Assembly: GCA_045534025.1 (NCBI GenBank) | Contig: JAZSIW010000009.1 | Coordinates: 1-40,000 of the forward strand | Origin: Eubacteriales bacterium | GTDB taxonomy: Bacteria > Bacillota > Clostridia > Oscillospirales > CAG-382 | DNA: 40,000 nt | Direction of reading: 5' to 3' | Part shown: positions 1,889-38,338 of the stretch, piece by piece | Numbering within the stretch: the stretch's first letter is position 1 | Layout: each line of letters opens with the position of its first letter | The notes under the pieces: generated by a model | The model's input: the letters and a program-made list of their open reading frames with translations, nothing else | What the model was told of the DNA's origin: nothing | Database searches by the model: none | Made by a program: the position numbers and the translations under genes

Positions 1889-1891
1889 TGC

Positions 1892-2364: not shown

Positions 2365-2381
2365 ATCTTTTCACCTCCTCC

Positions 2382-6652: not shown

Positions 6653-6661
6653 AACCGCCTC

Positions 6662-19133: not shown

Positions 19134-20711
19134 TCACTTGCCCTCCTCCCTCATTTTCAAGAGCAAGGAGCGTACTTCCTTCATAACGGCTACAACGCTG
19201 TCGTCCTTTGCTGCCGCCGCTTTTGCTATCTTTTTTTCAAGCTGTCCCACAACCATAGGCATAGACATATTCTGAGCCGCATTTTGAGCGTTTGCAACCA
19301 CGAGAGGCGTGTTGCCCCATTCGCCTTCAAACTCCTCAAAATCATCGCCAAGTGCGGAATATGCAATCTCCTTGGCCTTGTTGGGCGTGAGTCCGCCCGC
19401 CTTCTCCGCTATGGTAAGTATCTTGAACATATCGTCGGGGTTGGTTGTCTTCGGCTCCTTGAAGTACACCTCTACAAAACGGAAATTGTAACCGTTAAGC
19501 AAGCGGTTGTTGATAATCCACGCAAGGCTTTTGCGCTCCGGTTGGAATACTTGCTTCTCGGTTATCTCTTGCGCCGTCTGTGCTGTGGCACGGTTAAAGT
19601 CCGTTGTATAGCCTACATAGAGGTCGGGAAGGTTGAAAGCGGATTGGGCTCTGCGGCGGTTGTTGTCCAAATACTCTTGGAACAGTTCGTCCTTTTGCAA
19701 AATAGAGGCGAGGTCTTTTATCTCTACCTCTGCGGGCTTTTCTCCCTCGAATACCGCTGCGTTATCTGAGCTCTCTGTTTCAAGCACTATAAAAGCGTGT
19801 TGCCCTGCTTCGCCCTTGATGTCGTTCATATACTCGGTCAGCTTGGTGAACGAGTCCTCGGTGAGCGTGCCGCCTTTAAGAATTATCATCAGAGGCGTAT
19901 GCCTGCCGTTGCGGAAATAGTTGTTGTTAAGCTCCTCTGCACGTCGGCTCCCGTCTACGCCGAGTATCTGACCCGCCCATCGCACTTCTCCGTAAGGCTC
20001 GGTGCCTAACGCAAACTCCAACAGTTCGTTGGCTTGGTCTTTGAGGTCTAATTTTTCGCCGTCTGCAAGGTAATCGCCGCTATACTTATTCATAATACGG
20101 GGGTCGCCAAACTCCTTGAAATAGACGGTTTTGCTGCCTACCGTTTGGCGATATTTACGGAATTTGCGGTCGCGCTTCACTACCTTGCCCTTGTAGTTAA
20201 ACTCGGTGCTTATATAAGGCTCTAACAAGCGGGTCTTTTGTACCGACGGGATATCCTTTACGTACTCGATTTGCGCGACGTTCCCCTCAAGGTTGCGTAT
20301 GCACTCAAGGTACGCTATGCCGTAGGTTTCCCTGCCATCTATAATGTCCTTGAATATCTCCGTAGCGTCGCAATCGTAGTTAAGGAGGTCTATAATCTCC
20401 TCCGCCTGTGCGTACTCTGCCGCCATTTCGGAGGTTTCTTCTTCATCGACCTTATACCTCAAGCCGATGCCGAAGCCTGCTATGTTGTTTTTGTACGCTC
20501 TGATGCATTGAGGCAGAATGGAGGAGTTAAGCACAAACTTCTTCAAGCCTTGCAATTCAAAGTCGGGCGTTATCCATTCAGATGCCGACACAGCGGTTGC
20601 GCTGTCAAACTGCTCCGTTTTGTCTGATTTAAGCAAAGGTTGAGGGGCGGCGGCTCCTTTGATTATCTTAACCTCGTAGCCGGGCCTTTTCTTTAACGTC
20701 GCTTCCATCAC
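19134..20711 (-). CDS. Portal protein
   Basis: 525 aa. ATGA overlap with terL. Its position between terL and the gp7-like gene and its size are typical of portals. Confidence 0.8.
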   Translation of the reverse strand: MMEATLKKRPGYEVKIIKGAAAPQPLLKSDKTEQFDSATAVSASEWITPDFELQGLKKFVLNSSILPQCIRAYKNNIAGFGIGLRYKVDEEETSEMAAEYAQAEEIIDLLNYDCDATEIFKDIIDGRETYGIAYLECIRNLEGNVAQIEYVKDIPSVQKTRLLEPYISTEFNYKGKVVKRDRKFRKYRQTVGSKTVYFKEFGDPRIMNKYSGDYLADGEKLDLKDQANELLEFALGTEPYGEVRWAGQILGVDGSRRAEELNNNYFRNGRHTPLMIILKGGTLTEDSFTKLTEYMNDIKGEAGQHAFIVLETESSDNAAVFEGEKPAEVEIKDLASILQKDELFQEYLDNNRRRAQSAFNLPDLYVGYTTDFNRATAQTAQEITEKQVFQPERKSLAWIINNRLLNGYNFRFVEVYFKEPKTTNPDDMFKILTIAEKAGGLTPNKAKEIAYSALGDDFEEFEGEWGNTPLVVANAQNAAQNMSMPMVVGQLEKKIAKAAAAKDDSVVAVMKEVRSLLLKMREEGK

Positions 20712-22111
20712 TTCTTATCCCCTTTCTTTATTTCGTTTTTTATAGGGACGCATAACAAAAGAACGCAATCCGCCTCGTCGGGTGAAGGCAAATCGCGTTT
20801 CTTCATATCGTCTTTACTCTCTATTCGGATTTTGCTGTTTTCGGTAAGCCTATACTTTCTGCCCGAAAGTTGAGCTACCAAGTCATCGTCGTCCGGTAAT
20901 ATAAGCTCTACCGGTTTTGGCTTTCTTTCCTCGTCAAAAGGGGAAAGCAGGCTTTTAACCGTAGCCATCATATACGATGTGCTGTCGTGGTAATGTTTGT
21001 GCTTGATGCGCTGCCCAAATTTAATCGGCACTATGTTCATTTGTGTGAGGTTATCCGGGGCGTTTCTCTTTAGCTGTCTTAGCCTATCTACAACGCCACC
21101 GCCTACGCCGCCGTCGTCCACGCATACTGTAACGGCTCCTTTGTAGCCGGGGTAGCGCTTCAATAGGTCATAGTACAGTAACACTATATCGTCCGCCGTT
21201 TTCATTGTGTCTTGGCCGTGGCGCTTCTTATCAAGCGTTACCTTTTCGTCTACCTTGGAGCCTATTATAGTCTTATCGTCGCCAAATCTCGCAACGTCGC
21301 ACCCTATACGGATTGAATGTGGTACCGCCGCCGGTGTGTACTCTGTCATTATGGAGCGCTCAACAAGCGTTATCGGTATGAATACATCTGAGTTGCTAAG
21401 AGGAAAATCCCCCGCAACACGTACTCGGAATACGTCGCTATCCTCTCCGTACATTCGGATTATGGTGTCAATAAACTCTTGAGATACACGGCTGCTTTTC
21501 CTGCCGTCTATGTGGAATGTCTTGTATGACGCTCTGTTTTTGTTGTGGCTGTCGTAAAAGAAGCCGGAAAGCTGTGTAGGGTTTCCACACATTAAAAGCC
21601 TTGCGCCGGGCGTTGATAATGCACCAAGCACCGGCTCGAATATGTTATCTCTTACGCCGCTTGCTTCGTCGATGATGTAGAGAATATCGTCTGCGTGAAA
21701 GCCCTGTAAGGCGTCCGGCTTTGTTGCCGTTCTTGCTACCGCAAACCATTCCTCGGAATACCCCTTGAGGTATACTTTCTCACGGGTCCATACAAATTCT
21801 TTTTCAAGCGCCGGCGATTGCCTTAACCACTTGCTTACCTCCGCCCAAAGTATATCGAACAACTGATGCTGCGTCGGTGCCGTGCATGCTATTTTTGGGA
21901 ACGGCCTTGTAGACATAAACCATATAAGGGCCCACGCCTCAACAGCGCTCTTGCCTATACCGTGTCCGCTTCGTACCGATGTCATTGTGTTGTCGGCAAC
22001 ACTTTGCAGTATCTCCGCTTGCTGCGGGTCGGGCTTAATGCCTATGAGGTCTTCTACGAAATGAACGGGATTTTTAGCATAATACAGTATGGCGTCTTGA
22101 CTCAAACTCAT
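20708..22111 (-). CDS. terL: Terminase large subunit
   Basis: 467 aa. Walker A SGHGIGKS, Walker B ILYIIDEASG, and a C-terminal nuclease-like region. ATGA overlap with terS. Confidence 0.9.
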   Translation of the reverse strand: MSLSQDAILYYAKNPVHFVEDLIGIKPDPQQAEILQSVADNTMTSVRSGHGIGKSAVEAWALIWFMSTRPFPKIACTAPTQHQLFDILWAEVSKWLRQSPALEKEFVWTREKVYLKGYSEEWFAVARTATKPDALQGFHADDILYIIDEASGVRDNIFEPVLGALSTPGARLLMCGNPTQLSGFFYDSHNKNRASYKTFHIDGRKSSRVSQEFIDTIIRMYGEDSDVFRVRVAGDFPLSNSDVFIPITLVERSIMTEYTPAAVPHSIRIGCDVARFGDDKTIIGSKVDEKVTLDKKRHGQDTMKTADDIVLLYYDLLKRYPGYKGAVTVCVDDGGVGGGVVDRLRQLKRNAPDNLTQMNIVPIKFGQRIKHKHYHDSTSYMMATVKSLLSPFDEERKPKPVELILPDDDDLVAQLSGRKYRLTENSKIRIESKDDMKKRDLPSPDEADCVLLLCVPIKNEIKKGDKK

Positions 22112-22614
22112 TCGCCGTCCCCCTCCATTCTGTTTTTATATGCTGAAATAATGGTGTCAGCGAGGGATGCAGTTTGTCCGGGGCCGTTTTCGCCAAAGTC
22201 GGATATGCTCTCCTGCCTTGTTTCCTTTTCGAGCTTTGTTCCCAACGAAAGAAAGCGGGCTATATCTTTTGCCGACAAATACTTCAAACTGTCGAGGGCT
22301 TTTACCGCCTTTTTCTGCAAAAGCATCGCCGTTTGTATCTGCCTGTCTTGCATCTTTTTGATGGCGAGTTTCTTTTCTTCAAACTCTTGACGGCGCAAAT
22401 CGTTCTCGTAATCACGAACACGCTTCGGCCATTCCCACATACTGCTCCATCTGCCTATGAGTGCGTGGGATTTGTTCAACTGCTGTTCAACTTTTCGTAA
22501 AGTGCGCTCCCCGCCCATTTGGAGATACAAGTAAAAAGCTTCATAAGCCTGTGCGCTTTCGTTTGGCTGACGTTCCCAAGACAACAAATTCTTGCTCCCT
22601 TTAGCCTTTGCCAT
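22108..22614 (-). CDS. terS: Terminase small subunit
   Basis: 168 aa. N-terminal ESAQAYEAFYLYLQMGGERTLRKVEQQLNKSHALIGRWSSMWEWPKRV pattern (HTH) is common in Firmicutes phage small terminases. Located directly upstream of terL. Confidence 0.7.
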   Translation of the reverse strand: MAKAKGSKNLLSWERQPNESAQAYEAFYLYLQMGGERTLRKVEQQLNKSHALIGRWSSMWEWPKRVRDYENDLRRQEFEEKKLAIKKMQDRQIQTAMLLQKKAVKALDSLKYLSAKDIARFLSLGTKLEKETRQESISDFGENGPGQTASLADTIISAYKNRMEGDGE

Positions 22615-23905
22615 TATCCTCCTCTCCTTTTAGGGCGTATTTATAAACTATGTCGCCGTTTTCGTCTCTGCCAACGGGTCTGAGTATTCCTCCGTACCCT
22701 TTTGCCGGGCTTGTACCCTTGTTGGGGCTGTTCCAATTATCCCTAAGAAACTGCGACATTGTTGTATCATAATTTAACGCACGGTTTTTGTTGTTTCCCG
22801 TGTTGTAGCCTGCGGCTCCGACCCAGGGGAATGAAAAATATTTGTCGATGTTTTCTGAAATATCGGGCCATCGCACCTCTCCGTTTTCTCTTGCTGTTAT
22901 AATCGCTTGACCGAGGTTTCCCGTTTGGCTTACGTCCCATTCCGGTGGTACGCCGCAACAGTTACAAGCATCGTTGCATTCACGGCAAAAAGCGTCGCTA
23001 ACGTGGAAACGCATACCGAGGCTGTGGACGTATTCCCTCATATCGTGGATAATCGGTGCCTTTATGCCTCGGTTAAGCCTCTTGTAGCCATGTTGGGTGC
23101 TATTCTCCATATAGTATTTGTGTATGTCAAAACCACAAATCTTGCTCATTTCAGCGTATCGCTTCTTGAGGTTTTCGTCGGCTCTTGCTTCCATACAGAA
23201 AAACTCTGTCGTAACACTGTCGGCTCCGGCTTCGTGTGCCATTGATATAAGCTTCTTGTAATCCGAGGAAACTCCGAGGATAAACGGTCTAAGGCGTAGT
23301 GTTACGTGTATACCGATGTCTGAAAGCCTCTTTATTGCGGCTATCCTTTCTTCCGGTGAGGGCACGCCCTTTTCTATCCTTCGTGCCTTTTCTTTGTCTG
23401 CGGTTATTATGGAGATTTTAACGTGCCAATTATGGGTGTGTCTCTTGAACAGCTCCATATATCTTTCGTCGGCCGTCCACCAAGCAGCTTTTGTGCTAAA
23501 AGAAAGCGGGTAGTCTATTTTGTCGAAATACTTAAGAAGCTCCAACGTAACACCGTATCTACGCTCCCATTCGTCAAATTCGTCCGCAAGCCCTCCCCAT
23601 TGCATTATCCTGCGATTTTGGATATATGGGAAGAATTGTTGTTCCGTCTTAGTTACTCCCTCGGTATTGTTCAGCATAGCATTCTCAAATAAATTTATAA
23701 CCTTTTGAGGGTTTATGCAACGAGGTGCGCCGCCGCCTCCTATATAACCGTTTAATGTATGGCTTTTTTGGAAATAAGAAAAACAGTAAAGGCAGTTGTA
23801 AGCGCATTTGCTGTATGTGTCGAGGCTCATGGGCATCGAGCAATCGGGGATTTCCATGCTCCACCTTGGTGAGCTATAGTTTTGCTTTAATTGCTTTTCG
23901 TCCAT
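22601..23905 (-). CDS. Radical SAM enzyme, SplB/COG1533-like, 434 aa
   Basis: Start set to ATG 23905 (RBS TAGGAG overlapping the upstream stop). CX3CX2C cluster CAYNCLYC near the N-terminus and a C-terminal Cys cluster CRECNDACNCC. The 3' end overlaps the terS start by 14 nt. Confidence 0.8.
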   Translation of the reverse strand: MDEKQLKQNYSSPRWSMEIPDCSMPMSLDTYSKCAYNCLYCFSYFQKSHTLNGYIGGGGAPRCINPQKVINLFENAMLNNTEGVTKTEQQFFPYIQNRRIMQWGGLADEFDEWERRYGVTLELLKYFDKIDYPLSFSTKAAWWTADERYMELFKRHTHNWHVKISIITADKEKARRIEKGVPSPEERIAAIKRLSDIGIHVTLRLRPFILGVSSDYKKLISMAHEAGADSVTTEFFCMEARADENLKKRYAEMSKICGFDIHKYYMENSTQHGYKRLNRGIKAPIIHDMREYVHSLGMRFHVSDAFCRECNDACNCCGVPPEWDVSQTGNLGQAIITARENGEVRWPDISENIDKYFSFPWVGAAGYNTGNNKNRALNYDTTMSQFLRDNWNSPNKGTSPAKGYGGILRPVGRDENGDIVYKYALKGEEDNGKG

Positions 23906-23916
23906 GCTTTTTTCTC

Positions 23917-24501
23917 CTATTCGTCTATTCTTATAACTGTTGTTTGCGAACCTTCTTTTATCTGCCCGGTGAAGCCTTCGTCTTCGGCCCACCTCTCTGC
24001 ATAGAAGCTGTTTTCAAATACAAGGGTTACAACATAGCTGCCGCCTAAGATTTCTCCCTCGTATTCATCGTCCCACTCACCAAAGTCTGAGTCGTCTATG
24101 AGGTCCGAATTGTTGGCAAGTATAACGGCTATTTCGTCTTCCGAAAAGCCCGAAAGCGCTGCCACTTCGTAATCGAAGTCTTTTAATATCGCTTCCAACT
24201 TTTCGTAGTCCCATTGCCCCTTGATTTTGTTAAGCGCTACATTAAGCAGCTTTTCGTCTGTTTCGTCGAGGTCAACAACAGAGCAAGGGATTGTGTCGTA
24301 TCCTAAATGTTTCATAACGGCAAGGCGCTGATGGCCGCCTACTACGTTGCCCGTTCTTTTGTTCCAAACAATAGGCACCACATACCCTATTTCGGTGATG
24401 CTCCTTTCGAGCTTTTCCCACTCCGGCATCCCCGGTGCCAATTCTACACGGGGATTGTAAGGTGCTGCGTTAAGCTGCGCTATCTTAATTTCCTGTACCA
24501 T
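23917..24501 (-). CDS. ParB/Srx N-terminal domain protein (paralogue 2) with acidic linker and small C-terminal domain
   Basis: 194 aa. APYNPRV...VPIVWNKRTGNVVGGHQRLAV (ParBc-type core), then LNVALNKIKGQWDYEKLEAIL, an acidic stretch, and C-terminal YVVTLVFENSFYAERWAEDEGF. RBS GGAGGGG. Confidence 0.75.
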   Translation of the reverse strand: MVQEIKIAQLNAAPYNPRVELAPGMPEWEKLERSITEIGYVVPIVWNKRTGNVVGGHQRLAVMKHLGYDTIPCSVVDLDETDEKLLNVALNKIKGQWDYEKLEAILKDFDYEVAALSGFSEDEIAVILANNSDLIDDSDFGEWDDEYEGEILGGSYVVTLVFENSFYAERWAEDEGFTGQIKEGSQTTVIRIDE

Positions 24502-25099
24502 ACTCTGTCCCCTCCATCTTGATTGTTATGTTTCGGGCTGCGTCTTTGTATTCCGCCTCTACTCCTCTGTCTGTAAGCCACTTTTCGGCGGCTTCCTTTG
24601 TAGGAAAAGAAATAAACACGTGGAACGGCTTTTGACGCTCTACCGGCTCCGTTTCTTCGTCCGCGTCGTCGTCCGTTTCCTCGTAGTCATCCGTGTCGTA
24701 TTCTTCTTCACCGAACATACTTAAAAGTTCCTCCGCTGTAAAGCCGGTGTATTGTATGTCGTCGGCGTCTATTTCGTCAAAAAGCTCCTCCAATTTCTTG
24801 TAGTCCCATTCGCCGTCTATCTTGTTGATAGCGATATTAAGGAGCTTTTCTTGTTCTTCATCAACTTCTATAAGCACCACTTCCGCCTCCGTTTTTCCCT
24901 TATCTTTTAACACGGTGAGGCGTTGGTGCCCGCTTACGAGGTTTCCGGTGGTTTTGTTAAGCACTAAAGGCTCCACCAAATCAAATCGGTCAAGGCTGTT
25001 TTTCAAAGCCTCGTATTCGTCGTCGCCCGGTTTCAAAGCCTTTCGGGGGTTATAATCTGCCGGGCGGATATCTTCGAGTTTCATTATGGCGGTTTCCAT
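24485..25099 (-). CDS. ParB/Srx N-terminal domain protein (paralogue 1) with acidic linker and small C-terminal domain
   Basis: 204 aa. ADYNPRK...EPLVLNKTTGNLVSGHQRLTV, then LNIAINKIDGEWDYKKLEELF, the acidic run EYDTDDYEETDDDADEETE, and C-terminal FHVFISFPTKEAAEKWLTDRG. Confidence 0.75.
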   Translation of the reverse strand: METAIMKLEDIRPADYNPRKALKPGDDEYEALKNSLDRFDLVEPLVLNKTTGNLVSGHQRLTVLKDKGKTEAEVVLIEVDEEQEKLLNIAINKIDGEWDYKKLEELFDEIDADDIQYTGFTAEELLSMFGEEEYDTDDYEETDDDADEETEPVERQKPFHVFISFPTKEAAEKWLTDRGVEAEYKDAARNITIKMEGTEYGTGN

Positions 25100-25100
25100 A

Positions 25101-25862
25101 CTATTTAGCTCCTTTTCTTCGTTTTAGCTTTACGCTGTTTTCCTTTGAGGGGATAATCTCAAGTATGTCCCCGTGTTTTCTCTTGAGAAGCTTTAACATA
25201 TCGGTTTTGCGCTTCCACGCCTCTGCGCATCCTCCGTCTGCAAATCTGTCAATATCAGCGCAGGTGTCGTCTATGCTAACAAAAGCTCCGTAGCGTTTGA
25301 TTATTTGAGCACACATATCGGTATCTTGGAGGACAACAAAGTTGCGGTCAAATCGCAAATCCGTATTTATCAAGCCGTAAAAGCCCGTATCGCACAGTTT
25401 CCGTCTGTTATGGCCCGGCCGCATAAACATAGCGTTCCTTGTCATTGAAAGCCCAAAGCCAACCGTCTTTTCAAGCCTGCAAATTGCAAACCCTCTGCGG
25501 CAAAGAGTTAAAAGCTCTTCGAACTTTTGTACGTTAACGAGCTTTCGCTTCCCCGTTGCTTTATCTATCGTAAGGCGTTTTATCGCTTTTATGTCGTCTT
25601 CCAATATTACAATTTTTACGCCCTTTGAGTGGTAGTCTAAAAGCGTGTTAAAATTATCCGCAGCGCAACTCCCCCCCCGGTATAAGAAGGCGCCTACACG
25701 CTTGTTGACTCCTGCACGGGTGTACGCCTGCCGGTCCTCCTCTGTCTGCACGGAAAGAGATATCCAATCTTTCGGACATCCCATCGACTCAAGCAAATCG
25801 AGCGTTTTTTGGCGTCCGGCTCTTTTGTAGCTTGGTATGCAAAATAAAAATTCGGGCGTCAT
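25101..25862 (-). CDS. GT-A-fold-like transferase (paralogue 2)
   Basis: 253 aa. N-terminal FCIPSYKRAGRQ resembles the GT2 IPTYNR block. DxD-like IVILEDDI. C-terminal GGCAEAW is shared with the upstream paralogue. ATGA overlap with the upstream gene. Confidence 0.5.
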   Translation of the reverse strand: MTPEFLFCIPSYKRAGRQKTLDLLESMGCPKDWISLSVQTEEDRQAYTRAGVNKRVGAFLYRGGSCAADNFNTLLDYHSKGVKIVILEDDIKAIKRLTIDKATGKRKLVNVQKFEELLTLCRRGFAICRLEKTVGFGLSMTRNAMFMRPGHNRRKLCDTGFYGLINTDLRFDRNFVVLQDTDMCAQIIKRYGAFVSIDDTCADIDRFADGGCAEAWKRKTDMLKLLKRKHGDILEIIPSKENSVKLKRRKGAK

Positions 25863-26626
25863 TCTTTTTTCTTCTTTCTCAAATCTATTCTGTTGTTATC
25901 TCGCAATAGCACCCTTGCTTCGTGGGGCTTGTTTTTCTGTGGTGCTAAAATGTTTGGGTAAGCCTTGGAAAGTCTCTCTACGGTCTTTAAATTTTCGTCT
26001 GAGTGCCAAATTTCGTAGCAACCGCCTGCATTCGTCCGATGCTTTGCATTCGGGGCGAGAAAATTGTATCGCAACACTTCTCCGCCACCTTCGAGCACCC
26101 TTGCACACATTTCTATGTCTTCTTTTGTTTTGTAGCTTTCGTCGAACAACAGCTCATGCCCTTTTGTGAAGCCAATTACCGTGTTCACCGTAACCGTCGT
26201 CGATATGCTCGGCGACATAAAAAAAGCGTTATGCACGGGGTAAATCCCGAACAACGACGCTTTCCTCTTTTGTGCCATATTAAAGCACTTGTTTAGTAAT
26301 TCTGCGAACTCCTCGCGTGTATCGATGGGTACGAGTTTGTTTCCTCTAAGCTTCCCTATGCTTGAAACATCATCGTCAAACATAAGGATATTTGTGGCAC
26401 CCGAAAAATACCTCAGAGCGTTGTTCCTTGCTGCCGCTACTCCGTTTGCCGGGGTAAGGATTATGTTCGCCCTGTCTTCGTGCTTTTTGTAAGCCTCTCT
26501 GTCATTTGCGGTTTGCACAAAAATGTATATACGTTCTTTGGGTATTCCAAGCCCCGATAAATAATCAAGTGTTATCTGTTTTTCGGCTCTCCTGTATGAA
26601 GGTATTGCCATTACAAAGTTCTCCAT
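25859..26626 (-). CDS. GT-A-fold-like transferase (paralogue 1)
   Basis: 255 aa. RBS GAAGGAGGG. MAIPSYRRAEKQ, DxD-like ILMFDDDV, and C-terminal GGCYEIW. Confidence 0.5.
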   Translation of the reverse strand: MENFVMAIPSYRRAEKQITLDYLSGLGIPKERIYIFVQTANDREAYKKHEDRANIILTPANGVAAARNNALRYFSGATNILMFDDDVSSIGKLRGNKLVPIDTREEFAELLNKCFNMAQKRKASLFGIYPVHNAFFMSPSISTTVTVNTVIGFTKGHELLFDESYKTKEDIEMCARVLEGGGEVLRYNFLAPNAKHRTNAGGCYEIWHSDENLKTVERLSKAYPNILAPQKNKPHEARVLLRDNNRIDLRKKKKE

Positions 26627-27068
26627 TAGCTACCCTCCTTCTCAACTCTGTCGAGCTTAATCCGTGCGCCCTGCTATTATAATAAATTTCGATGCCGAGG
26701 TCCCTGCAGGCTTGCTTCCCGGTGAAATCTTTGTCTCTATAATCTTCCCCTACAAATCGTATGTCTATGGGGAGTGAGCGAATGGCTAACTCCAAGTCTG
26801 CCTCGCTTTCAAGTGGTACTACCTCATCTACGGCTCTGTGGCCCACAAGCTGGGCGTATCGTTCGAATACCGATTGTACGGGCTTGTTTTTGAACGGTCT
26901 GTCCGTAGTCGGGTCTGTTATTATGCCGACGTATAAATAGTCGCAGTACATTTTACATTCATCGAGCATCAACGAATGCCCTGCGTGTAACAAATCTCCT
27001 ACAACCGATGTGAAGCCGATAATTAACGGCTTTGCGCTTTTTTTGCTACTCGCTAAAGAGCTGTCCAT
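26565..27068 (-). CDS. Cytidylyltransferase-family nucleotidyltransferase (TagD/ECT/RfaE-II-like)
   Basis: 167 aa. GFTSVVGDLLHAGH carries the HxGH signature. Also YVGIITD and the C-terminal RAHGLSSTELRRRV (R..G.S[ST]T motif). Confidence 0.75.
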   Translation of the reverse strand: MDSSLASSKKSAKPLIIGFTSVVGDLLHAGHSLMLDECKMYCDYLYVGIITDPTTDRPFKNKPVQSVFERYAQLVGHRAVDEVVPLESEADLELAIRSLPIDIRFVGEDYRDKDFTGKQACRDLGIEIYYNSRAHGLSSTELRRRVANGELCNGNTFIQESRKTDNT

Positions 27069-28131
27069 TCTTATCTATCATCCCTTTTGCCATGGTTTTG
27101 ACTATCTGCTTCCCTTTTTCGTCTTTATATCTGTACAGCCTTATAATGTACATCAAGTGGAGCCCTACAACGATATCGTAAATGCCCCTGCGCTTGAGTA
27201 TGCAATCCAATGTTGCGAGGTATGCCGTGTTGTTTGCTTCACTTATGCCGAAAGCGTATTCGTATCCGCTAAGCGACATTCTAAGCTTAGCAAAATCTAA
27301 AAGGTAGCTTGAGCTTTCTCTAAAATAGCGTGGGTCTATGAAATAAAGCTGCCCATCGTCGCCTTTGATGATATTGCTTAATATCATATCGCCGTGAGAA
27401 TAGCTTGCGTGCCTGTGAAAAGCTTCTTTGTGATGTGTGATAAAACGCTTGCACAAATCTATTATCCCGTTCATTTCTTTGTCGCTGGAGTAATTGCCTT
27501 CCAAAATCTCAATATGCGGTGTTATGTCAAACGCTGCCTTCCTTCTCTTTGAAAACTCAAGGATAGTAAATAAGACTTTGGCAAAATCTTCGTCGGTAAA
27601 GCAGTCTACAAGGTTTTTCCCTTCTATGAAGTCCATATAAACTGCGTTGTATAGGCAAGAAATAACCCTCGGAAACTTGCATGCGCCGGCGTTATCTTCG
27701 ACCCATTCGCGAAAACGGGCGGTATCTTCTACGCTCCCAAGCATCTTTTTTACCGTTTTGCCGAGGCGGTATATAGGCTTGTTAGAGCCTCCTCCGTGTA
27801 ACATTCCAAAGGTACCGGAGTGGAAGTCTGCTAAGTTAACCGCTTTGTCGTCAACATACAAATCTCCGATGGGCTTGCCGAATATCAGTTCATCGCACGG
27901 CACATCGTGCTTTTTTAGCCACCTTATTATCTGCGCTCGATTGCGGGCCTCTATCAACGCTAAATCGCCGTTGCATGAAACCTGACCTCTTGCTGTGTGA
28001 ATGACTATCTCGCATCCATCCTCTTTGAGCTGCCGCATCTTCTCGACAGTTTCAAGAATGGGCGTAGCGTTCTCGTAATCACGATTTATGTGAGTGCTTA
28101 TGGTGTCGTCTAAATCAAATACTATGCGCAT
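27046..28131 (-). CDS. Fusion protein: small HAD-superfamily phosphatase (N-terminal) plus choline-kinase/APH-fold kinase (C-terminal)
   Basis: 361 aa. RBS GGAAGGAGAGG. HAD motif I VFDLDDT, motif II IHTAR, and motif III/IV GKPIGDLYVDDK. Kinase part has LHGGGSNKPIYRLGKTVKK, catalytic HGDMILSNII, and YFIDPRY. Confidence 0.7.
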   Translation of the reverse strand: MRIVFDLDDTISTHINRDYENATPILETVEKMRQLKEDGCEIVIHTARGQVSCNGDLALIEARNRAQIIRWLKKHDVPCDELIFGKPIGDLYVDDKAVNLADFHSGTFGMLHGGGSNKPIYRLGKTVKKMLGSVEDTARFREWVEDNAGACKFPRVISCLYNAVYMDFIEGKNLVDCFTDEDFAKVLFTILEFSKRRKAAFDITPHIEILEGNYSSDKEMNGIIDLCKRFITHHKEAFHRHASYSHGDMILSNIIKGDDGQLYFIDPRYFRESSSYLLDFAKLRMSLSGYEYAFGISEANNTAYLATLDCILKRRGIYDIVVGLHLMYIIRLYRYKDEKGKQIVKTMAKGMIDKNGQLFSE

Positions 28132-28252: not shown

Positions 28253-28281
28253 ATTCTACCACACTCTTTTTGCCTTGTAAA
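28253..28281 (-). promoter_or_regulatory. Sigma-A/sigma-70-type promoter: TTTACA - 17 nt - TGgTAGAAT
   Basis: Minus strand has a -35 TTTACA (28281-28276), a 17-nt spacer with an extended-10 TG (28261-28260), and a -10 TAGAAT (28258-28253). It lies in the 189-nt gap after the regulator gene. Confidence 0.6.
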
Positions 28282-28320: not shown

Positions 28321-28989
28321 CTAAAACTTTTCTATGCCGCAAATCCCGTACAAAAGGGAAGTGAGGCAGGAAACGGCGGCGTCTATGTCCTTGTATACTG
28401 TGCGCTTGTCTATATGCTCCGTGTTGGCTATGCTCTGCGCCGTGGTAGGGATTTCGTCAAGGTACATCGCCTTGAGTATGCGGTAGTGCCTTTTGTCGTC
28501 CTCTCGGTTGGAACGTTCACACATAAGAGCGTAAACATCAAGCATACGGTTAACGTGGGTCATTATTATCTTTGTGCGTACCGTGGAGCTTTTTATGGCC
28601 TCCACGCTAAAATTATCTTCGTAGCCCTTGCTTGACATCATTTCCATAATGTCGATAAAGCTTTCGTCTACTTCTTCCGCCTGTTCTATTTCAAAAATGG
28701 CGTTATTAAAGTGTTCGTTGAGGTGCCTATAGTTCTGCATAAGGAGCTTCGTATTGTGGTATCTGCGGTCATATTGACGCTCTCGGAGCTTCTTTTTCTC
28801 ACGCTCTATAGATTTAATAGCCGCTTTAGCTCCTACCTCTGCACCTACCGCCGCACCGATTTGTGTGCCAAGAGTAATGGCCGCTTTAAGCTTTTCGTCG
28901 ATGTTTTTGTTTGCTACGTCATAAGCTGCGATAACGGCTGCCTTGATTATTTCCTCGATTTCAAGCCCCGTCCTGTTGTTTGTTCCCAT
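28321..28989 (-). CDS. Putative late-gene transcriptional regulator (ArpU/RinA/sigma region-4-like C-terminus)
   Basis: 222 aa. RBS GAGGAGGTG. Central RRYHNTKLLMQNYRHLNEH and C-terminal HTH-like YRILKAMYLDEIPTTAQSIANTEHIDKRTVYKDIDAAV. It is the last gene before the late promoter. Confidence 0.45.
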   Translation of the reverse strand: MGTNNRTGLEIEEIIKAAVIAAYDVANKNIDEKLKAAITLGTQIGAAVGAEVGAKAAIKSIEREKKKLRERQYDRRYHNTKLLMQNYRHLNEHFNNAIFEIEQAEEVDESFIDIMEMMSSKGYEDNFSVEAIKSSTVRTKIIMTHVNRMLDVYALMCERSNREDDKRHYRILKAMYLDEIPTTAQSIANTEHIDKRTVYKDIDAAVSCLTSLLYGICGIEKF

Positions 28990-30495: not shown

Positions 30496-30792
30496 TCACC
30501 CCCAATCCAAAGCCTGTCCGCAGTCCGGGCAGTAAGCACAGCCCCAATTATTGATACCGTACTCAAAGTCGCCGTTACCGCAGTTCGGGCATTTGGCGTT
30601 ATCGTAGATGAGGTTTCCGTCCTCGTCGTAGCCGTCGCCCCAAAATTCGGGTGGTTGCGGTATTTGTTTTAAGATAGCCTTTCTTCCGATTTCGCAAGCC
30701 TCGTTTACAGGCTCAATACTCTCGTAGTGTTCGCGGTGCGTCGGGTCAAGGATTTCGGCGGCTCTTTCGAGCATCATTTCCTGTTTGCTCAT
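30496..30792 (-). CDS. Small zinc-ribbon protein
   Basis: 98 aa. CPNCGNG...CAYCPDCG (two CxxC pairs). Confidence 0.55.
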   Translation of the reverse strand: MSKQEMMLERAAEILDPTHREHYESIEPVNEACEIGRKAILKQIPQPPEFWGDGYDEDGNLIYDNAKCPNCGNGDFEYGINNWGCAYCPDCGQALDWG

Positions 30793-31193
30793 GCACCCAC
30801 CTCCTCAATGGCTTTTATGACCTCCGCTGTGGTCTGTCCTTTTTTTATTCCTACCATAATTGCGGGCGGTGTCGGCATTTCTGCCGCGATAGGCCGCCAA
30901 AGGTGAAGGCAATTAGGGATGTTATTTACATATTCGCTCTTTGCCGGGTGATACTGTACTACGGTTTCATTTTCTCTGAAAAACATATCTTTCAGCTTGC
31001 ACATATCGTCCCATGACGGCGTTATCTTCCTGTTGCACGGTGCTACGCTAACGTGTTCCCAACCTCCGCCGTTGCTCCATATTACCGTAGCCCAACGTTT
31101 ACCGGCTTGAAATATCACTCCGCACCCGCCGTCGGGAGCGGTCCGGGCGATAAGTAAATTCGGTATGTTTTTGAGTTCTTCGTTTGTCTTCAT
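30789..31193 (-). CDS. Conserved phage protein of unknown function
   Basis: 134 aa. GGGWEHVSVAP...PSWDDMCKLKDMFF...VVQYHPAKSEYVNN.PNCLHLWRP is a pattern I recognise from many phage early regions. Function unknown. Confidence 0.55.
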   Translation of the reverse strand: MKTNEELKNIPNLLIARTAPDGGCGVIFQAGKRWATVIWSNGGGWEHVSVAPCNRKITPSWDDMCKLKDMFFRENETVVQYHPAKSEYVNNIPNCLHLWRPIAAEMPTPPAIMVGIKKGQTTAEVIKAIEEVGA

Positions 31194-31885
31194 TTAGCTG
31201 CCTCCATTTCTGCCCGTAGGGACTCTTTGATGTAGTAGTTGAGTCCAAGCTGCCGACAAAGCGTTTCGGCTCTCCTGCCAAAGTCCGCCCAATCAATGTT
31301 GGATTTGTGATAGTTCAGTTTGCCGATTTTGACCTTATCGACAATCGGTGCTACCAAGTGTAGGTTGATGAAAAACTCTCTATCATCGGTTACGGGCTCG
31401 AATGATACCCAAGTCTTTATGCCGAGGCTGTGCGCCTGTGCGAGAGCGTCAACCCTTGCTTTCCATTGCGGGTTTCTGCCGTTGCCAATACCGTCGAGGG
31501 TTATGCCGTACCAATCCTCCGGACCGAGCAAATCAAAATCACGGCTGCCGTCGCCTTTGGTGAGGATTTGCACGTTATTACCGGTGCTTTTCAGTAGGGA
31601 GATTATCTCGCGTGTTACGGTGGTGTCGTAACCGTGAGGGTATGGGTCGCAAGTAAAACAAAGGTGTATAAGCTTCCCTTTGATGCCCTCATGCTCTATC
31701 TGCTTCCGTGTTTCTTCGACGATGTTCGGCTTTGGCTCTACAACGCTATGGAATTTTTCTCTGTCTTTATGTAAGACATTGGGCGCAAAGCAGTAATAGC
31801 ATCTATGAGGGCACCCCGTGTATATGTTTATTGCGTAGTCTCCGTATTCTTTTGCTTTGCCCTTTGGTATGTAAATAGGCTTCAT
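31190..31885 (-). CDS. Radical SAM enzyme, short SplB/COG1533-like, 231 aa
   Basis: INIYTGCPHRCYYCFAPN carries CX3CX2C in the context N.Y.GC.H.C.YC typical of COG1533 'DNA repair photolyase'-type radical SAM proteins. Confidence 0.75.
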   Translation of the reverse strand: MKPIYIPKGKAKEYGDYAINIYTGCPHRCYYCFAPNVLHKDREKFHSVVEPKPNIVEETRKQIEHEGIKGKLIHLCFTCDPYPHGYDTTVTREIISLLKSTGNNVQILTKGDGSRDFDLLGPEDWYGITLDGIGNGRNPQWKARVDALAQAHSLGIKTWVSFEPVTDDREFFINLHLVAPIVDKVKIGKLNYHKSNIDWADFGRRAETLCRQLGLNYYIKESLRAEMEAAK

Positions 31886-32314: not shown

Positions 32315-33109
32315 CTAATGTTTGTCTAATTGACTTATAAGTCCTTGCAACGGGAAATTCATCCAAAGCTTTTCTGTTCTGTGTAATCCCATTTGCGCCG
32401 TTGTATCAATTAAATCCGTGTACCACCCATCAAGCATAGAGTTATATAATTCGCTGTCGTATCCGCTAATAACGACTTTTGCGTTGCTGTTAAGCAAGGC
32501 GCCCAAAAGGTCCCTATGCTTTTCTTCGGACATTTCGCAAGCATACATATTTCTTTTCCGCAAACTTGGCAGATACGGGGGGTCACAATATATAAGCGTA
32601 TCCGAGCTGTTGTATCGCCTAATAAGCTCAATGGCATCTATTCTTTCTATTTGGGCATCTTTAAGCCGCATACAGCAACTTTGTATAATCTGCGGCAAAT
32701 CATTCCACATAGTTGCACATCGAGGACCGCCATAGGTTTGTACATTGCGCCAGCTCCTTTTACTGCTGTTGCTTGTTCCAAAAGATTGATGATACCGCAC
32801 CAATGTCCTCCGAGCCTGCTCAACCGGGTCTACAGAACGGTGGTAGCACTCTTCAAATTCTTGCCGGCTGAACGGAGTAAGGCTTATTGCTCTTGCAAGT
32901 GCATCGGGCTGTTCTCTGCACACTTGAAACAAATTCACAATGTCGCCGTCAATATCGTTTATCGTTTCTATATAGGTTGGGGTCTTTTGAAAAAACACGC
33001 CGCCCGACCCAAAGAAAGGCTCTAAATAAACCTTGTGTTCGGGGAAATGCGATATTATCCATTGTGCTATGCGCCACTTTGCGCCGGGATACTTAAGAAT
33101 TGCTTTCAT
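32315..33109 (-). CDS. dam: Dam-family (D12 class) N6-adenine DNA methyltransferase
   Basis: Start set to ATG 33109 (RBS AAGGAG). LKYPGAKWRIAQWI, motif I EPFFGSGGVFF, motif IV LIYCDPPYL. Confidence 0.85.
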   Translation of the reverse strand: MKAILKYPGAKWRIAQWIISHFPEHKVYLEPFFGSGGVFFQKTPTYIETINDIDGDIVNLFQVCREQPDALARAISLTPFSRQEFEECYHRSVDPVEQARRTLVRYHQSFGTSNSSKRSWRNVQTYGGPRCATMWNDLPQIIQSCCMRLKDAQIERIDAIELIRRYNSSDTLIYCDPPYLPSLRKRNMYACEMSEEKHRDLLGALLNSNAKVVISGYDSELYNSMLDGWYTDLIDTTAQMGLHRTEKLWMNFPLQGLISQLDKH

Positions 33110-33419
33110 TTTGCATCTCCTTATGCTGTAGTTCGCCGTAACTGCAATAATCATTTGGGTCAAGTCCGTCAGTCATAAAATAAGAACACACAATATCATC
33201 TCCCGAATAGTCGGTAATATCCAATGGGTCTTTTTCCATATTTGCCACATTAAATTTACAATCTTTACACCTTACCACTTCCACAACATCTGCGGTGGGT
33301 ATCTTTGAAAGGTTGGGAGAATACTCTTCTCCGTGGTCGCAATAAGTATTACAACCGCTGTTACTATGATGTCGGCAAGTCTCACATTTGCCTAAATATT
33401 TTGTGTCAATATAGGGCAT
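33093..33419 (-). CDS. Small Cys-rich protein (paralogue B)
   Basis: 108 aa. CETCRHH..GCNTYCDHG, VVRCKDCKF, NDYCSYGE. Confidence 0.55.
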   Translation of the reverse strand: MPYIDTKYLGKCETCRHHSNSGCNTYCDHGEEYSPNLSKIPTADVVEVVRCKDCKFNVANMEKDPLDITDYSGDDIVCSYFMTDGLDPNDYCSYGELQHKEMQNESNS

Positions 33420-36194: not shown

Positions 36195-38015
36195 TTAATT
36201 TAAAAGCAACATAGCGTTGTTCGTGACGGGAGCGAGGTAATAATTCGCCTTAGCCATAATGTCGTTGTACGCTTGTTCTCCTTGAAAACCGTCTATGACG
36301 TTTTTTTCCTCCTCGGTCATATCGGTGTAACGCTTCCTGCCGTAGCACGGAGGCAGCCACGCTTTATTTTGGGCAGCGTAGATATTAAATCTCTCTATCA
36401 ATTCGGGGCAGGTAAATACAAGGTGTACCGTACCCTTTTTGTAAAACGTTGCTTTGAAATACTTGAGGGGTACGTTTTTGGTTTCTCCATGTTTAAAGTG
36501 CCATTCTAACGTCTGCTCAAGGCTTACGTCTAAGGTCATATTGCCGTCGAGGAAATTGAGTATGCGCTCTATATCTTCTAAAACTTTTCGAGCTTCATAG
36601 GTGCGAGGTTTACCATCCCAACTATCGAACACTCCATAGCAAGGGATGATAACCTTCTTGCCTATTTTGTGGGCTTTGTTTGTAGCCCATCCGTCGTAAT
36701 AATGCCTGTTCTTTTGTGTTTCCGGGTACCACGAATGTTCCTCCGTCAAGCGGTCAAACATCGCTATTATCTCCTCCTCAATTCCGGTCTTGATTTGGGA
36801 GTTCATTTCGGCAAGCAAGGTGTATATGTTGTACTCCGTGTAATCATAAGCAGCTAACTTGCTTACTTTTACGTAGTATTCCTGTTGGAGCTTGCTTGTA
36901 AGCTTGCTTACAAATTTAGGGTTTTTGACTAACGCTATCCAATACTTTAGCCTTACGGCTTTCAAATATTCGTTTACAGAAACGGTGTTGTAGCAACGGT
37001 CGTATGTGTCTTTGAGTTTCAATATAGGCTCCGTGTCTACATATTCTCTGCTTATGGTGCCGTCTGCGTTCTTAACCTCTTTTGTTTCAAAAGAACGTAT
37101 CATATACGGCATCATAGCTCTGTATTGTCTTATAAGCTCTATGCCGGCTTTGACTTCTACTCGGAATAGATTTACGGAAGATTTGATAACGTCGGTTACG
37201 TCTAAGTCTCTGCTTTCAAAATCAAAATCCTCTACCGCCTCAGCTTCCTTCATTCGGTTGTATATTTCGCTTTCTTCCTGTACTGCCGGTATGTCAACCT
37301 TAATTATGGCTACCTCGACGTTTGTTTTTCGCTCTGCCTCCATAAATGCGCCTTCTTCAAATTCGATGGAAGCGCCGTATGTGTTAAGCAAACGTATAAG
37401 CTCTTTTCGGGTTTCTGTGTAAGGGTTGCGGATTGTTTCGGCGTTGACTAAGAACACGATCTTCCCGCCATCCCTTTGTATTTCCAAAGCTTTCAAAAGG
37501 TGTCTATCCGCAACGCTAAAGGGAGGGTTTCCGATGATAAGGTCGTATTGCTTAAACGGCTCAAAGGTAAGAAAATCATCGTGTACGACGTGTATGCCGC
37601 CGTGTATAAAGGTTTTCAGCTCCTCCTCAAGTAGTGCGTGTTCGGCCTTATCCTCTGCAGAGGCCCATACGTATTTATGGGCGTCGGAGCTGTAGTTGCG
37701 TCGGTTTTCAAGTTCTCCTTGCCTTCTGTGAATTTCGCTTTTTCTTTCTTCCGAAAAGTTGTATTTAAGTATCTGCCTTAAATTCGGGTCTATCTCTACG
37801 CAATCAACGTCGTATCTATCGTCGCAGTATCTTGAATATTCATTGGCCGCTTTTTTTGCAAACCCTCGTATGATATCACCTTTCCCGGCGGAAGGCTCAA
37901 GCACGGTGTTAATCTTTCTCAAGTCTACTTCTTCTAACATTTTTTGCACCAAACGTGGAGGCGTAGGGTAAAACTCGCTGCTTTCAGCGTTCTCTACAAG
38001 CTGTACTGCGTTCAT
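36195..38015 (-). CDS. Gamma-class N6-adenine DNA methyltransferase with a large C-terminal extension (DUF4942-like)
   Basis: Start set to ATG 38015 (ATGA overlap, RBS GGAGGAGG). EFYPTPPRLV, motif I LEPSAGKGDI, motif IV LIIGNPPF. About 400 further residues of unassigned function follow. Confidence 0.8.
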   Translation of the reverse strand: MNAVQLVENAESSEFYPTPPRLVQKMLEEVDLRKINTVLEPSAGKGDIIRGFAKKAANEYSRYCDDRYDVDCVEIDPNLRQILKYNFSEERKSEIHRRQGELENRRNYSSDAHKYVWASAEDKAEHALLEEELKTFIHGGIHVVHDDFLTFEPFKQYDLIIGNPPFSVADRHLLKALEIQRDGGKIVFLVNAETIRNPYTETRKELIRLLNTYGASIEFEEGAFMEAERKTNVEVAIIKVDIPAVQEESEIYNRMKEAEAVEDFDFESRDLDVTDVIKSSVNLFRVEVKAGIELIRQYRAMMPYMIRSFETKEVKNADGTISREYVDTEPILKLKDTYDRCYNTVSVNEYLKAVRLKYWIALVKNPKFVSKLTSKLQQEYYVKVSKLAAYDYTEYNIYTLLAEMNSQIKTGIEEEIIAMFDRLTEEHSWYPETQKNRHYYDGWATNKAHKIGKKVIIPCYGVFDSWDGKPRTYEARKVLEDIERILNFLDGNMTLDVSLEQTLEWHFKHGETKNVPLKYFKATFYKKGTVHLVFTCPELIERFNIYAAQNKAWLPPCYGRKRYTDMTEEEKNVIDGFQGEQAYNDIMAKANYYLAPVTNNAMLLLN

Positions 38016-38338
38016 ATCGTCGCCTCCTCCGTGCATATCTTTATACCGATAATAACGTGTTCCGGCGTATGTGTCGTGCCTCTGTCGTACAGCGTAGCCG
38101 TGTCGCCGTCAAACTCCCAAAACGGAGTTTTGCTCCAATATAACCAAGAGCCCTTGCCGCAGTTGGCGGCGGACACTTTGCTTTGAGGCTGCCCCGGAAT
38201 AATACTGTAAAAGCCCTGCGTATTTGCTATGTTTACCTTTCGCCTCTGCCCTATGTATTCGGGCCTACAATGGGCCGTTACTTCAAATTCTGCGCCGGGG
38301 GTTAGCGCCTTCTTTAACTGAGATAAATTTTTAATCAT
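38012..38338 (-). CDS. Hypothetical protein
   Basis: Start set to ATG 38338 (RBS GAGAGG). 108 aa. The longer ORF would overlap the loader gene. Confidence 0.5.
   Translation of the reverse strand: MIKNLSQLKKALTPGAEFEVTAHCRPEYIGQRRKVNIANTQGFYSIIPGQPQSKVSAANCGKGSWLYWSKTPFWEFDGDTATLYDRGTTHTPEHVIIGIKICTEEATI

Follow-up and report, generated by a model that had tools for sequence, protein, structure and literature searches.

The sources of 5-hydroxymethylpyrimidines in DNA appear to be of two kinds, TS-like hydroxymethylases acting at the nucleotide level, which need a dedicated polymerase and takeover of the dNTP pool, and O2-dependent TET/JBP dioxygenases. Phage gene clusters in which a kinase and a transferase derivatise 5-hydroxymethyluracil (5hmU) have been described, and these use either a dUMP hydroxymethylase or TET_JBP as the 5hmU source (Lee et al. 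2021, PMC8989533). JBP and the phage TET_JBP dioxygenases, which have a 2-oxoglutarate/Fe(II) double-stranded beta-helix fold, are accompanied by TET-associated glycosyltransferases (TAGT), 5-HMUDK and aGPT-Pplase (AADT). Radical SAM genes have been listed among the tailoring genes of metagenomic clusters, and gp53 of Pseudomonas phage M6 is a radical SAM isomerase that converts N-alpha-glycinylthymine to the C-alpha form in a kinase and transferase cluster (PMC8989533). Spore photoproduct lyase (SPL, SplB, TIGR04070; PDB 4fhc and relatives) works on thymine-methyl chemistry in duplex DNA, and together with M6 gp53 it shows that this branch of radical SAM enzymes handles thymine-methyl radicals in DNA. 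The related families PA0069 (NF033668) and Rv2578c (NF038135), of the COG1533 "DNA repair photolyase" type, are bacterial and uncharacterised.

In this work we have analyzed a radical SAM gene located immediately upstream of the terminase genes in a 40,000-nt stretch of DNA (contig JAZSIW010000009.1, positions 1 to 40,000; hereafter the window). A first-pass annotation made from the sequence alone had assigned the gene to the SplB/COG1533 branch, noted that it is coupled to the small terminase gene terS, and suggested that its product could initiate base modification at a thymine methyl or similar position. Our analysis confirms the gene and supports this assignment at the level of the superfamily branch, and comparative genomics favors the proposed role, although the function remains inferred.

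Methods

Open reading frames of the window were compared with Pfam, NCBIfam and PHROG profiles, and the enzyme was compared with PDB sequences using both the single protein and a 32-sequence profile. An AF2 model was compared with solved structures by Foldseek. Homologs were collected at E<=1e-3, residue conservation was assessed in 130 non-identical homologs, and gene content was tabulated for 147 related loci from gut and rumen anaerobes, most of them inspected within 10 kb on either side of the enzyme gene. GenBank phage records (50,697) were searched by tblastn. Sources of 5hmU were sought with a ThyA seed and Pfam families, and C5-methyltransferases with a crude motif pattern.

Results and discussion

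The radical SAM gene and its product

The gene lies on the minus strand (22601..23905) and encodes a protein of 434 amino acids. Its ATG at 23905 is preceded by AGGAGA, whereas a longer form starting with GTG and reaching 23992 would overlap the upstream ParB-like gene and is not supported by the N-termini of homologs. The stop codon TAA (22601..22603) lies inside terS, whose ATG is at 22614..22612, giving an overlap of 14 nt (22601..22614, ATGGCAAAGGCTAA), and the ribosome-binding site of terS, GGAGAGGAGG, is located in the last codons of the enzyme gene. The search for homologs gave 1683 proteins, the best of them at 86% identity and E=4e-267, hence the gene is real. The exact protein of the window was not found on record, and the search of phage records gave only two weak metagenomic hits at 23-26% identity, so no cultured phage was found to carry the gene.

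The motif CAYNCLYC (C34-X3-C38-X2-C41, the [4Fe-4S]/SAM cluster motif) occupies residues 34-41 (23783..23806, minus strand) and not a position about 45 residues from the start as first annotated. It is invariant in 130 unique homologs, and in several homologs inteins are inserted inside this loop. The second Cys-rich patch, CRECNDACNCC, is found at residues 307-317 (22955..22987, minus strand), but across the family only its C316 and C317 are invariant; C310 and C314 occur in about 35% of the 130 non-identical homologs, and C307 was nearly invariant only among the 14 close relatives. Together with the other family-invariant residues C22 and C237, the CC pair may provide ligands of a second cluster or catalytic thiols.

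The Pfam Radical_SAM domain (PF04055) covers residues 31-214 with 30.2 bits against a gathering score of 29.5, leaving about 220 C-terminal residues without a Pfam match. The best NCBIfam matches are PA0069 (69.6 bits) and Rv2578c (48.5 bits), over residues 18-239 only and far below the cut-offs of 360 and 430 bits, respectively; the cluster motif lies near the N-terminus in the same way, but the C-terminal half is not shared. The AF2 model has pTM 0.78 with alternating strand-helix elements, although the N-terminal cluster region (residues 16-58) is of low confidence with pLDDT below 50. Its top fold matches are SkfB, SPL and NifB, and nearly all significant PDB matches are radical SAM enzymes (SkfB, SPL, NifB, TYW1, LipA), in agreement with a predicted radical SAM barrel unrelated to the fold of TET/JBP. 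SPL takes 6 of the top 10 fold matches (Foldseek E 3e-5 to 3e-4, TM-score 0.49 on the SPL length). The protein is nevertheless not a member of the spore photoproduct lyase family, since the TIGR04070 model scores 11.1 bits (E=0.14) against a cut-off of 400. Searches of PDB sequences with the protein and with the family profile gave nothing relevant, with no match to SPL sequences. The enzyme is also about 95 residues longer than SPL, has different extra conserved Cys residues, and lies in a modification and not a repair context. Membership in the NrdG, QueE and MoaA families was likewise rejected on scores.

Among characterised relatives only M6 gp53 installs a DNA modification. It is an SPL-like radical SAM enzyme of similar size (480 aa) and is detectable as a distant homolog (33 bits with the family HMM; 21% identity, 35 bits and E=2e-6 by BLASTP), the identity being too low for orthology. 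gp53 acts after the kinase and the transferase, and M6 has its own TS-like gene next to the cluster. The 5-HMUDK, glycine:DNA transferase and PLP decarboxylase context of gp53 is missing from the window.

Organization of the module in the window

The neighbors of the enzyme gene, overlooked in the first-pass annotation, proved decisive for its interpretation. Directly upstream on the same strand lie two genes for ParB-like proteins. ParB-like protein 1 (23917..24501; 194 aa) scores 29.9 bits with ParB_N against a gathering score of 26.3 and matches phrog_498 and phrog_620; ParB-like protein 2 (24485..25099; 204 aa) is its paralog (35% identity, E=4e-35; ParB_N 20.5 bits). They are followed by a divergent TAGT-type glycosyltransferase (25101..25862, minus strand; 253 aa), which scores only 18.2 bits with TAGT, below the gathering score, but is 30% identical to the neighboring TAGT (E=3e-30) and matches phrog_842 at 1.7e-7. 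The neighboring TAGT (25859..26626, minus strand; 255 aa) scores 52.8 bits with PF20691 against a gathering score of 27.5 and matches phrog_842, "beta-glucosyl-HMC-alpha-glucosyltransferase", at 1.1e-22; its orthologs lie next to the enzyme in three of the related loci (L001, L004 and L005).

Further upstream, a sugar-phosphate nucleotidyltransferase (26565..27068, minus strand; 167 aa) was identified by CTP_transf_like (39.2 bits), RfaE domain II (3.4e-16) and glycerol-3-P cytidylyltransferase (5e-12) as a candidate maker of the NDP-sugar donor; this gene was found only in TAGT-type loci. The next gene (27046..28131, minus strand; 361 aa) encodes a HAD phosphatase (EcbF/BcbF capsule phosphatase, 1e-23) fused to a kinase-like C-terminal half with an HGDxxxxN-type motif, presumably involved in sugar-donor synthesis, and occurs in 13 loci, all TAGT-type. 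The best sigma-70-like site (28253..28281, minus strand; TTTACA-17-TAGAAT with TG) is located in the 190-nt gap upstream of the module and possibly marks the operon start, but as the promoter and terminator scan was at chance level it is only a weak lead. Downstream of the enzyme gene lie the small terminase subunit (22108..22614, minus strand; phrog_6299 at 3e-26) and the large terminase subunit (20708..22111, minus strand), the latter assigned by position and by membership of the terL_b cluster.

The enzyme is the constant core of a module with exchangeable cassettes

Across the 147 loci the enzyme nearly always sits just before terS/terL, and this position is conserved across three terS and two terL families. 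ParB-like genes lie upstream of the enzyme in 124 loci. The next slot holds either TAGT (55 loci) or a homolog of the 5-hmdU DNA kinase, usually with an amino-acid:DNA transferase and GNAT (69 loci); 3 loci have both and 18 have neither, and GNAT alone or an FkbM-type methyltransferase are rarer. ParB and the radical SAM gene also occur without a cassette, for example in locus L079. No other upstream family is present in more than about 15% of loci, and the recurrent ones that were scanned are replication, recombination or regulatory proteins (SSB, helicase, primase, YqaJ, HTH, DUF6273, ASCH), except for two of the ten scanned, which, like some smaller clusters, remain unidentified. A SAM synthetase gene lies near the enzyme in 30 loci, often directly after it, which fits stoichiometric SAM consumption. 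The module is widespread in uncultured gut phages, and it is also carried by a cultured strain, Selenomonas ruminantium S137. No paper on this family was found.

TAGT and the kinase are repeatedly fused to the enzyme. Among representatives at 50% identity there are TAGT-rSAM, rSAM-TAGT and kinase-rSAM-TAGT proteins (rSAM, radical SAM), and of the 23 proteins of 520 aa or more nine carry TAGT and one carries an FkbM methyltransferase. The cassettes all transfer groups to a nucleophile: the kinase HMM hits M6 gp54, a verified 5-hmdU DNA kinase, at 70.5 bits, the transferase is Pfam ADDT at 4.9e-9, and TAGT matches phrog_842. Loci L096 and L097 are 97.7-98.6% identical in DNA on both flanks and differ by a 732-bp TAGT gene replaced with a 467-bp kinase gene between ParB and the radical SAM gene, and further pairs have 89-94% identical enzymes in the two context types. 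An enzyme this conserved cannot be tailoring both sugars and phosphates or amino acids, so it should act before them.

No alternative source of 5hmU was detected. No ThyA-like ORF was found at E<=10 in any of the 147 loci, including the whole window, although most loci were inspected only within 10 kb on either side, the window may lack a few kb of the genome, and a hydroxymethylase could lie elsewhere. The search was also negative in six early-region loci of phages with a related DnaC-like loader, at least one of which (L154) carries the upstream genes of the module, while the same seed found the TS-like ORF of phage M6 at 4e-9. No TET_JBP or Thymidylat_synt family appeared in Pfam scans of the window's genes between 20.7 and 40 kb or in the precomputed Pfam annotation of five other contexts, TET_JBP absence resting on the window ORFs, recurrent neighbor clusters and these five contexts and not on a TET model run on every ORF. 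One locus (L157) has a weak ThyX-like gene, but it has no counterpart in the other loci and was rejected as a conserved partner. No DNA polymerase or dNTP-pool enzyme family appeared in the window scans. The hosts are almost all strict anaerobes, where O2-dependent TET/JBP could not work.

Proposed role of the enzyme

We infer that the gene encodes the initiating enzyme of a post-replicative DNA hypermodification module, and that this enzyme converts thymine in DNA to 5-hydroxymethyluracil. In the absence of biochemical or analytical evidence for any member of the family, we consider this only somewhat more likely than not. In the proposed mechanism the [4Fe-4S] cluster on C34/C38/C41 cleaves SAM to the 5'-deoxyadenosyl radical, which abstracts a hydrogen from the C5-methyl of thymine in double-stranded phage DNA, 5-methylcytosine being a less likely target. 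The resulting allylic radical would be oxidised by one electron, possibly through a second site built from C22, C237, C316 and C317, and trapped by water. There appears to be no precedent for a radical SAM enzyme hydroxylating a DNA base with water, and the reaction needs an electron acceptor that has not been identified. The two ParB-like proteins look like obligate partners and probably load or move the enzyme on DNA. In the window the new hydroxyl would then be glycosylated by one or both TAGT enzymes, with the donor coming from the adjacent phosphatase/kinase and nucleotidyltransferase genes. Since the module heads the packaging operon, DNA would be modified late, just before encapsidation, and the likely benefit is protection from restriction in the next host.

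In such a role the enzyme would be an oxygen-independent functional analog of JBP/TET. It shares with the JBP and phage TET_JBP systems the genomic niche and the partners, a single enzyme next to glycosyltransferases, a DNA-base kinase and amino-acid:DNA transferases in clusters in which no dUMP hydroxymethylase was detected, and the proposed product is also 5hmU made on the DNA polymer. It differs from them in its radical SAM fold and Fe-S cofactor, in requiring no O2 and in the near-universal ParB-like partner. The wider proposal, that such an enzyme working with ParB-like DNA-binding partners hydroxylates the methyl group of thymine (or 5-methylcytosine) in duplex DNA with oxygen from water, and feeds a swappable set of glycosyl, phosphoryl/aminoacyl, acetyl and methyl transfer cassettes, has in our view about an even chance of being correct.

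Other roles have to be considered. Like M6 gp53, the enzyme might rearrange or oxidise a group already appended to a hydroxymethyl base supplied by some unseen route, a possibility raised by its distant homology to gp53, by the 69 loci with a kinase and transferase type of cluster and by the radical SAM genes listed among tailoring genes (PMC8989533). This seems unlikely, because enzymes that are 89-98% identical serve TAGT-only, kinase-only and kinase and transferase contexts, ParB and the radical SAM gene occur with no cassette at all, and neither a PLP decarboxylase partner nor a source of the hydroxymethyl base was found in the regions searched. It is equally doubtful, though not excluded, that the enzyme initiates modification with a different substrate or product, such as 5-methylcytosine to 5hmC or another hydroxylated or activated position on a base. 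The Pfam family name indicates that TAGT was defined next to TET, which acts on 5mC, the window has two DNA methyltransferases, and the product has not been observed. However, both methyltransferases are of the N6-adenine type (one of the D12 class, the other a DUF4942 protein with only weak Eco57I- and Dam-like matches), and only one ORF in the 147 loci fits a C5-methyltransferase motif pattern, a crude screen on which a conserved C5-methyltransferase partner was provisionally rejected. Moreover, the alternative cassette is a clear homolog of the 5-hmdU DNA kinase, and SPL-branch enzymes handle the thymine methyl radical.

A function unrelated to the cassettes, such as SPL-like repair of packaged DNA or an accessory role in terminase or pac-site processing with ParB-like nucleases, the cassettes being merely inserted at a recombination hot spot, is very unlikely. 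The conserved position before terS and the SPL-like fold would agree with it, and ParB-like nuclease genes are probably common near terminase genes. Against it stand the repeated in-frame fusions with TAGT and the kinase, which argue for functional coupling, the low score of the SPL model, the many hosts that do not form spores, and the adjacency across three unrelated terS and two terL families, which fits shared timing better than a specific physical partnership. The possibility of a non-DNA enzyme such as an NrdG-type activase or a QueE-type deazapurine synthase, likely the commonest radical SAM genes in phages, is remote, as neither family appears in NCBIfam at E<=1 and no NrdD, QueC/D, FolE or DpdA family appeared among the window ORFs scanned.

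Conclusions

How phages of strict anaerobes that replicate with host machinery could build hydroxymethylpyrimidine-based modifications has no known answer. If the enzyme analyzed here is the source, it would define a new reaction for radical SAM chemistry on DNA and would offer an oxygen-free tool for writing 5hmU or 5hmC. It would also explain a large class of uncharacterised "DNA repair photolyase" genes in gut viromes, and would predict that many abundant gut and rumen phages carry hypermodified thymine, which affects restriction, CRISPR targeting, sequencing and virome analysis.

Sequence features of the radical SAM gene

The open reading frame located on the minus strand at 22601..23905 is a real gene encoding a protein of 434 amino acids. 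Its ATG at 23905 is preceded by an AGGAGA ribosome-binding site, whereas a longer form starting with GTG (to 23992) would run into the upstream gene and is not supported by the N-termini of homologs. The CAYNCLYC motif is found at residues 34-41 and a second Cys-rich patch, CRECNDACNCC, at residues 307-317. The TAA stop codon (22601..22603) lies 14 nt inside terS, whose ATG is at 22614, and the terS ribosome-binding site GGAGAGGAGG is located within the last codons of the enzyme gene. The first-pass annotation had placed the cluster motif about 45 residues from the start, which is off by roughly ten; everything else in its observation, including the second Cys-rich patch and the stop codon inside terS, is correct.

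In the Pfam search only the radical SAM core was recognized (residues 31-214, 30.2 bits against a gathering score of 29.5). The best NCBIfam matches were the uncharacterised COG1533-type families PA0069 (69.6 bits, cut-off 360) and Rv2578c (48.5 bits, cut-off 430), whereas spore photoproduct lyase (SPL) scored 11 bits against a cut-off of 400 and NrdG and QueE did not appear at all. PHROGs places the protein in phrog_13321 of unknown function, and no solved structure was found by sequence or by profile. The AF2 model has pLDDT 72 and pTM 0.78, although the N-terminal cluster region is poorly modelled. Its best PDB fold matches are SkfB, then spore photoproduct lyase (6 of the top 10, TM-score 0.49 on the SPL length) and then NifB.

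The family is large, with 1683 hits at E<=1e-3 in one database and 172 50%-identity representatives at E<=1e-30 in another, and strongly conserved, with 66-86% identity among phages whose structural modules differ. In 130 non-identical members the invariant Cys residues are C22, C34, C38, C41, C237, C316 and C317. C310 and C314 of the second patch occur in only about 35% of members, and C307 was nearly invariant only among the 14 close relatives. Several homologs (P0132, P0147, P0151, P0156, P0223 and P0232) carry inteins (Hint/LAGLIDADG) inserted inside the CX3CX2C cluster loop, one protein having two inteins.

Genetic surroundings in the window

The upstream genes all lie on the same strand, with short overlaps. 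The enzyme gene is preceded by two genes for paralogous ParB-like proteins (23917..24501 and 24485..25099), 35% identical to each other, and by those for two TET-associated glycosyltransferases (TAGT; 25101..25862 and 25859..26626), one of which scores 52.8 bits on PF20691 and both of which match phrog_842, annotated as a glucosyl-HMC glucosyltransferase. Further upstream are genes for a sugar-phosphate nucleotidyltransferase (26565..27068) and a HAD phosphatase fused to a kinase-like domain (27046..28131). Downstream come terS, terL and the portal gene. A 190-nt gap upstream of the block holds the best promoter-like site on that strand, though the scan as a whole is at chance level. A 222-aa protein with a weak C-terminal HTH match (28321..28989, minus strand), conserved directly upstream of the modification module in 20 loci, may be a late-gene regulator.

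The rest of the non-structural half of the window encodes RecU, SSB, DUF7694 (30789..31193), a second short COG1533-like radical SAM protein, two N6-adenine-type methyltransferases, a DnaC-like loader and a Lin1244-like protein, and Pfam scans of these genes found no DNA polymerase, no TS-like enzyme, no TET_JBP and no dNTP-pool enzymes. The second radical SAM gene (31190..31885, minus strand; 231 aa; PA0069 5e-12, 'mobile pair B' 7e-7), whose role is unknown, lies between DUF7694 and a D12 N6-adenine methyltransferase (32315..33163, minus strand), and related phages carry DUF5131 or a 280-aa radical SAM gene in the same region. The other methyltransferase (36195..38036, minus strand) is a DUF4942 protein with weak Eco57I- and Dam-like matches. 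The phage therefore probably also carries 6mA marks.

Distribution and organization of related loci

We collected 147 loci with homologs of the enzyme: seven from exact-protein look-ups, 80 from IMG/VR, 59 from GTDB genomes and the window itself. The hosts are almost all strict anaerobes of gut and rumen (Clostridia, Lachnospiraceae, Oscillospiraceae, Selenomonas, Prevotella, Bacteroidales and Victivallales). One host is a cultured isolate, the rumen bacterium Selenomonas ruminantium S137 (NZ_FNJQ01000002.1, about 99.5-120.8 kb), which carries a prophage with the order ParB-ParB-kinase-rSAM-terS-terL and an enzyme 71% identical to that of the window, and offers an experimental handle. GenBank phage records contain no member; a tblastn search gave only two hits, at 23-26% identity.

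The enzyme gene sits immediately before terS/terL almost everywhere, across three terS clusters and two terL clusters, and ParB-like genes are upstream in 124 of 147 loci. The neighbouring slot falls into two nearly exclusive types: 55 loci are of TAGT type and 69 of kinase type, the latter with a P-loop kinase and usually an amino-acid:DNA transferase (PF18724, 4.9e-9) and a GNAT. Three loci have both and 18 have neither, many of the 18 being truncated. The kinase HMM built from these loci hits gp54 of phage M6, the experimentally verified 5-hmdU DNA kinase (PMC8989533), at 70.5 bits. Rarer cassettes are a GNAT alone (five loci) and an FkbM-type methyltransferase, another candidate hydroxyl-derivatising cassette, which is adjacent to the enzyme in one locus (L032, 9318..9983) and fused with it in the homolog P0136. 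In about 10 loci (among them L004 7031..7972, L010 3870..4874 and L157 6582..7532), all of TAGT type, a SPASM-domain radical SAM gene sits next to a longer TAGT variant and may tailor the sugar. ParB + rSAM also occurs with no cassette, for example in locus L079.

A SAM synthetase gene lies near the enzyme gene in 30 loci, often directly after it and before terS, an example being the short SAM synthetase-like gene (PF00438 N-terminal domain) at 6243..7097 of locus L035. Phages related to the window carry one about 5 kb after the DnaC-like gene (loci L151, L152, L154 and L156), while the window itself has none. In locus L051 the radical SAM gene is immediately followed by a gene for a DUF362 / 4Fe-4S protein (3667..4590), which may be an electron-transfer partner.

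Fusions and cassette replacement

Nine of the 23 representative proteins of 520 aa or more are fusions with TAGT, which occur in both orders and include a kinase-rSAM-TAGT triple fusion; most of the other long proteins contain inteins. Enzymes from TAGT-type and kinase-type loci are intermixed in sequence space, with nearest cross-type neighbours at 89-98% identity. Two phage loci, L096 and L097, are 97.7-98.6% identical in DNA on both flanks and differ by a clean replacement of a 732-bp TAGT gene (L096, 9248..9979) with a 467-bp P-loop kinase gene (L097, 9253..9719) between ParB and the enzyme gene.

Search for another source of the hydroxyl-bearing base

A search with a ThyA query found nothing at E<=10 in any of the 147 loci, including the whole 40-kb window, nor in six loci covering the early region of phages with a related DnaC-like loader, at least one of which (L154) carries the module's upstream genes. 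Pfam annotation of the window's genes between 20.7 and 40 kb and of five other contexts shows no TET_JBP or Thymidylat_synt. No other upstream family recurs in more than about 15% of loci; the recurrent ones that were scanned are replication, recombination or regulatory proteins, and two of the ten scanned gave no match. One phage locus (L157) has a weak ThyX-like (PF02511) gene at 1836..2603, 8 kb upstream of the module, with no homolog in the other 147 loci. Only one ORF in the whole set fits a C5-methyltransferase motif pattern.

Proposed role of the enzyme

All the variable cassettes are group transferases that need a nucleophile, and two of them belong to families known to act on 5-hydroxymethylpyrimidines in DNA, whereas the constant elements are the radical SAM enzyme and the ParB-like proteins. 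The enzyme is essentially the same whatever is appended, it can be fused to the transferases and it can occur with ParB alone. The simplest reading is that it acts first and creates the acceptor. The same logic has been used for metagenomic kinase + transferase clusters that lack a dUMP hydroxymethylase and carry TET_JBP instead (Lee et al. 2021, PMC8989533). Here the hosts are anaerobes and the constant enzyme is a radical SAM protein, whose branch includes spore photoproduct lyase and M6 gp53, both of which operate through thymine-methyl radicals in DNA. We therefore propose hydrogen abstraction from the thymine methyl, one-electron oxidation and capture of water, giving 5hmU in DNA, followed in this window by glycosylation; the steps from thymine as the substrate onward are inferred. 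The four extra invariant Cys residues may form an auxiliary cluster or act as catalytic thiols, and the ParB-like pair may load or move the enzyme on DNA. The placement of the module at the head of the packaging operon fits late modification just before encapsidation.

The main alternative is a tailoring role like that of gp53, which is hard to reconcile with the cassette swaps and with the loci that contain ParB + rSAM only. A different substrate or product, such as 5-methylcytosine, remains possible. A repair or packaging role independent of the cassettes is contradicted by the fusions, while NrdG-type and QueE-type roles are excluded by the profile searches and by the lack of partner genes among the window ORFs scanned with Pfam. 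The suggestion of the first-pass annotation that a SplB-like enzyme could initiate base modification at a thymine methyl or similar position is supported in its main lines, although the neighbouring genes that carry most of the evidence had been missed.

DNA hypermodification clusters are already known, but no description of this family, nor of the ParB partnership, was found in the literature that we could search. What is new in the system is the class of its proposed initiating enzyme and the predicted oxygen-free chemistry, and if this chemistry is confirmed, the enzymology itself would be new.
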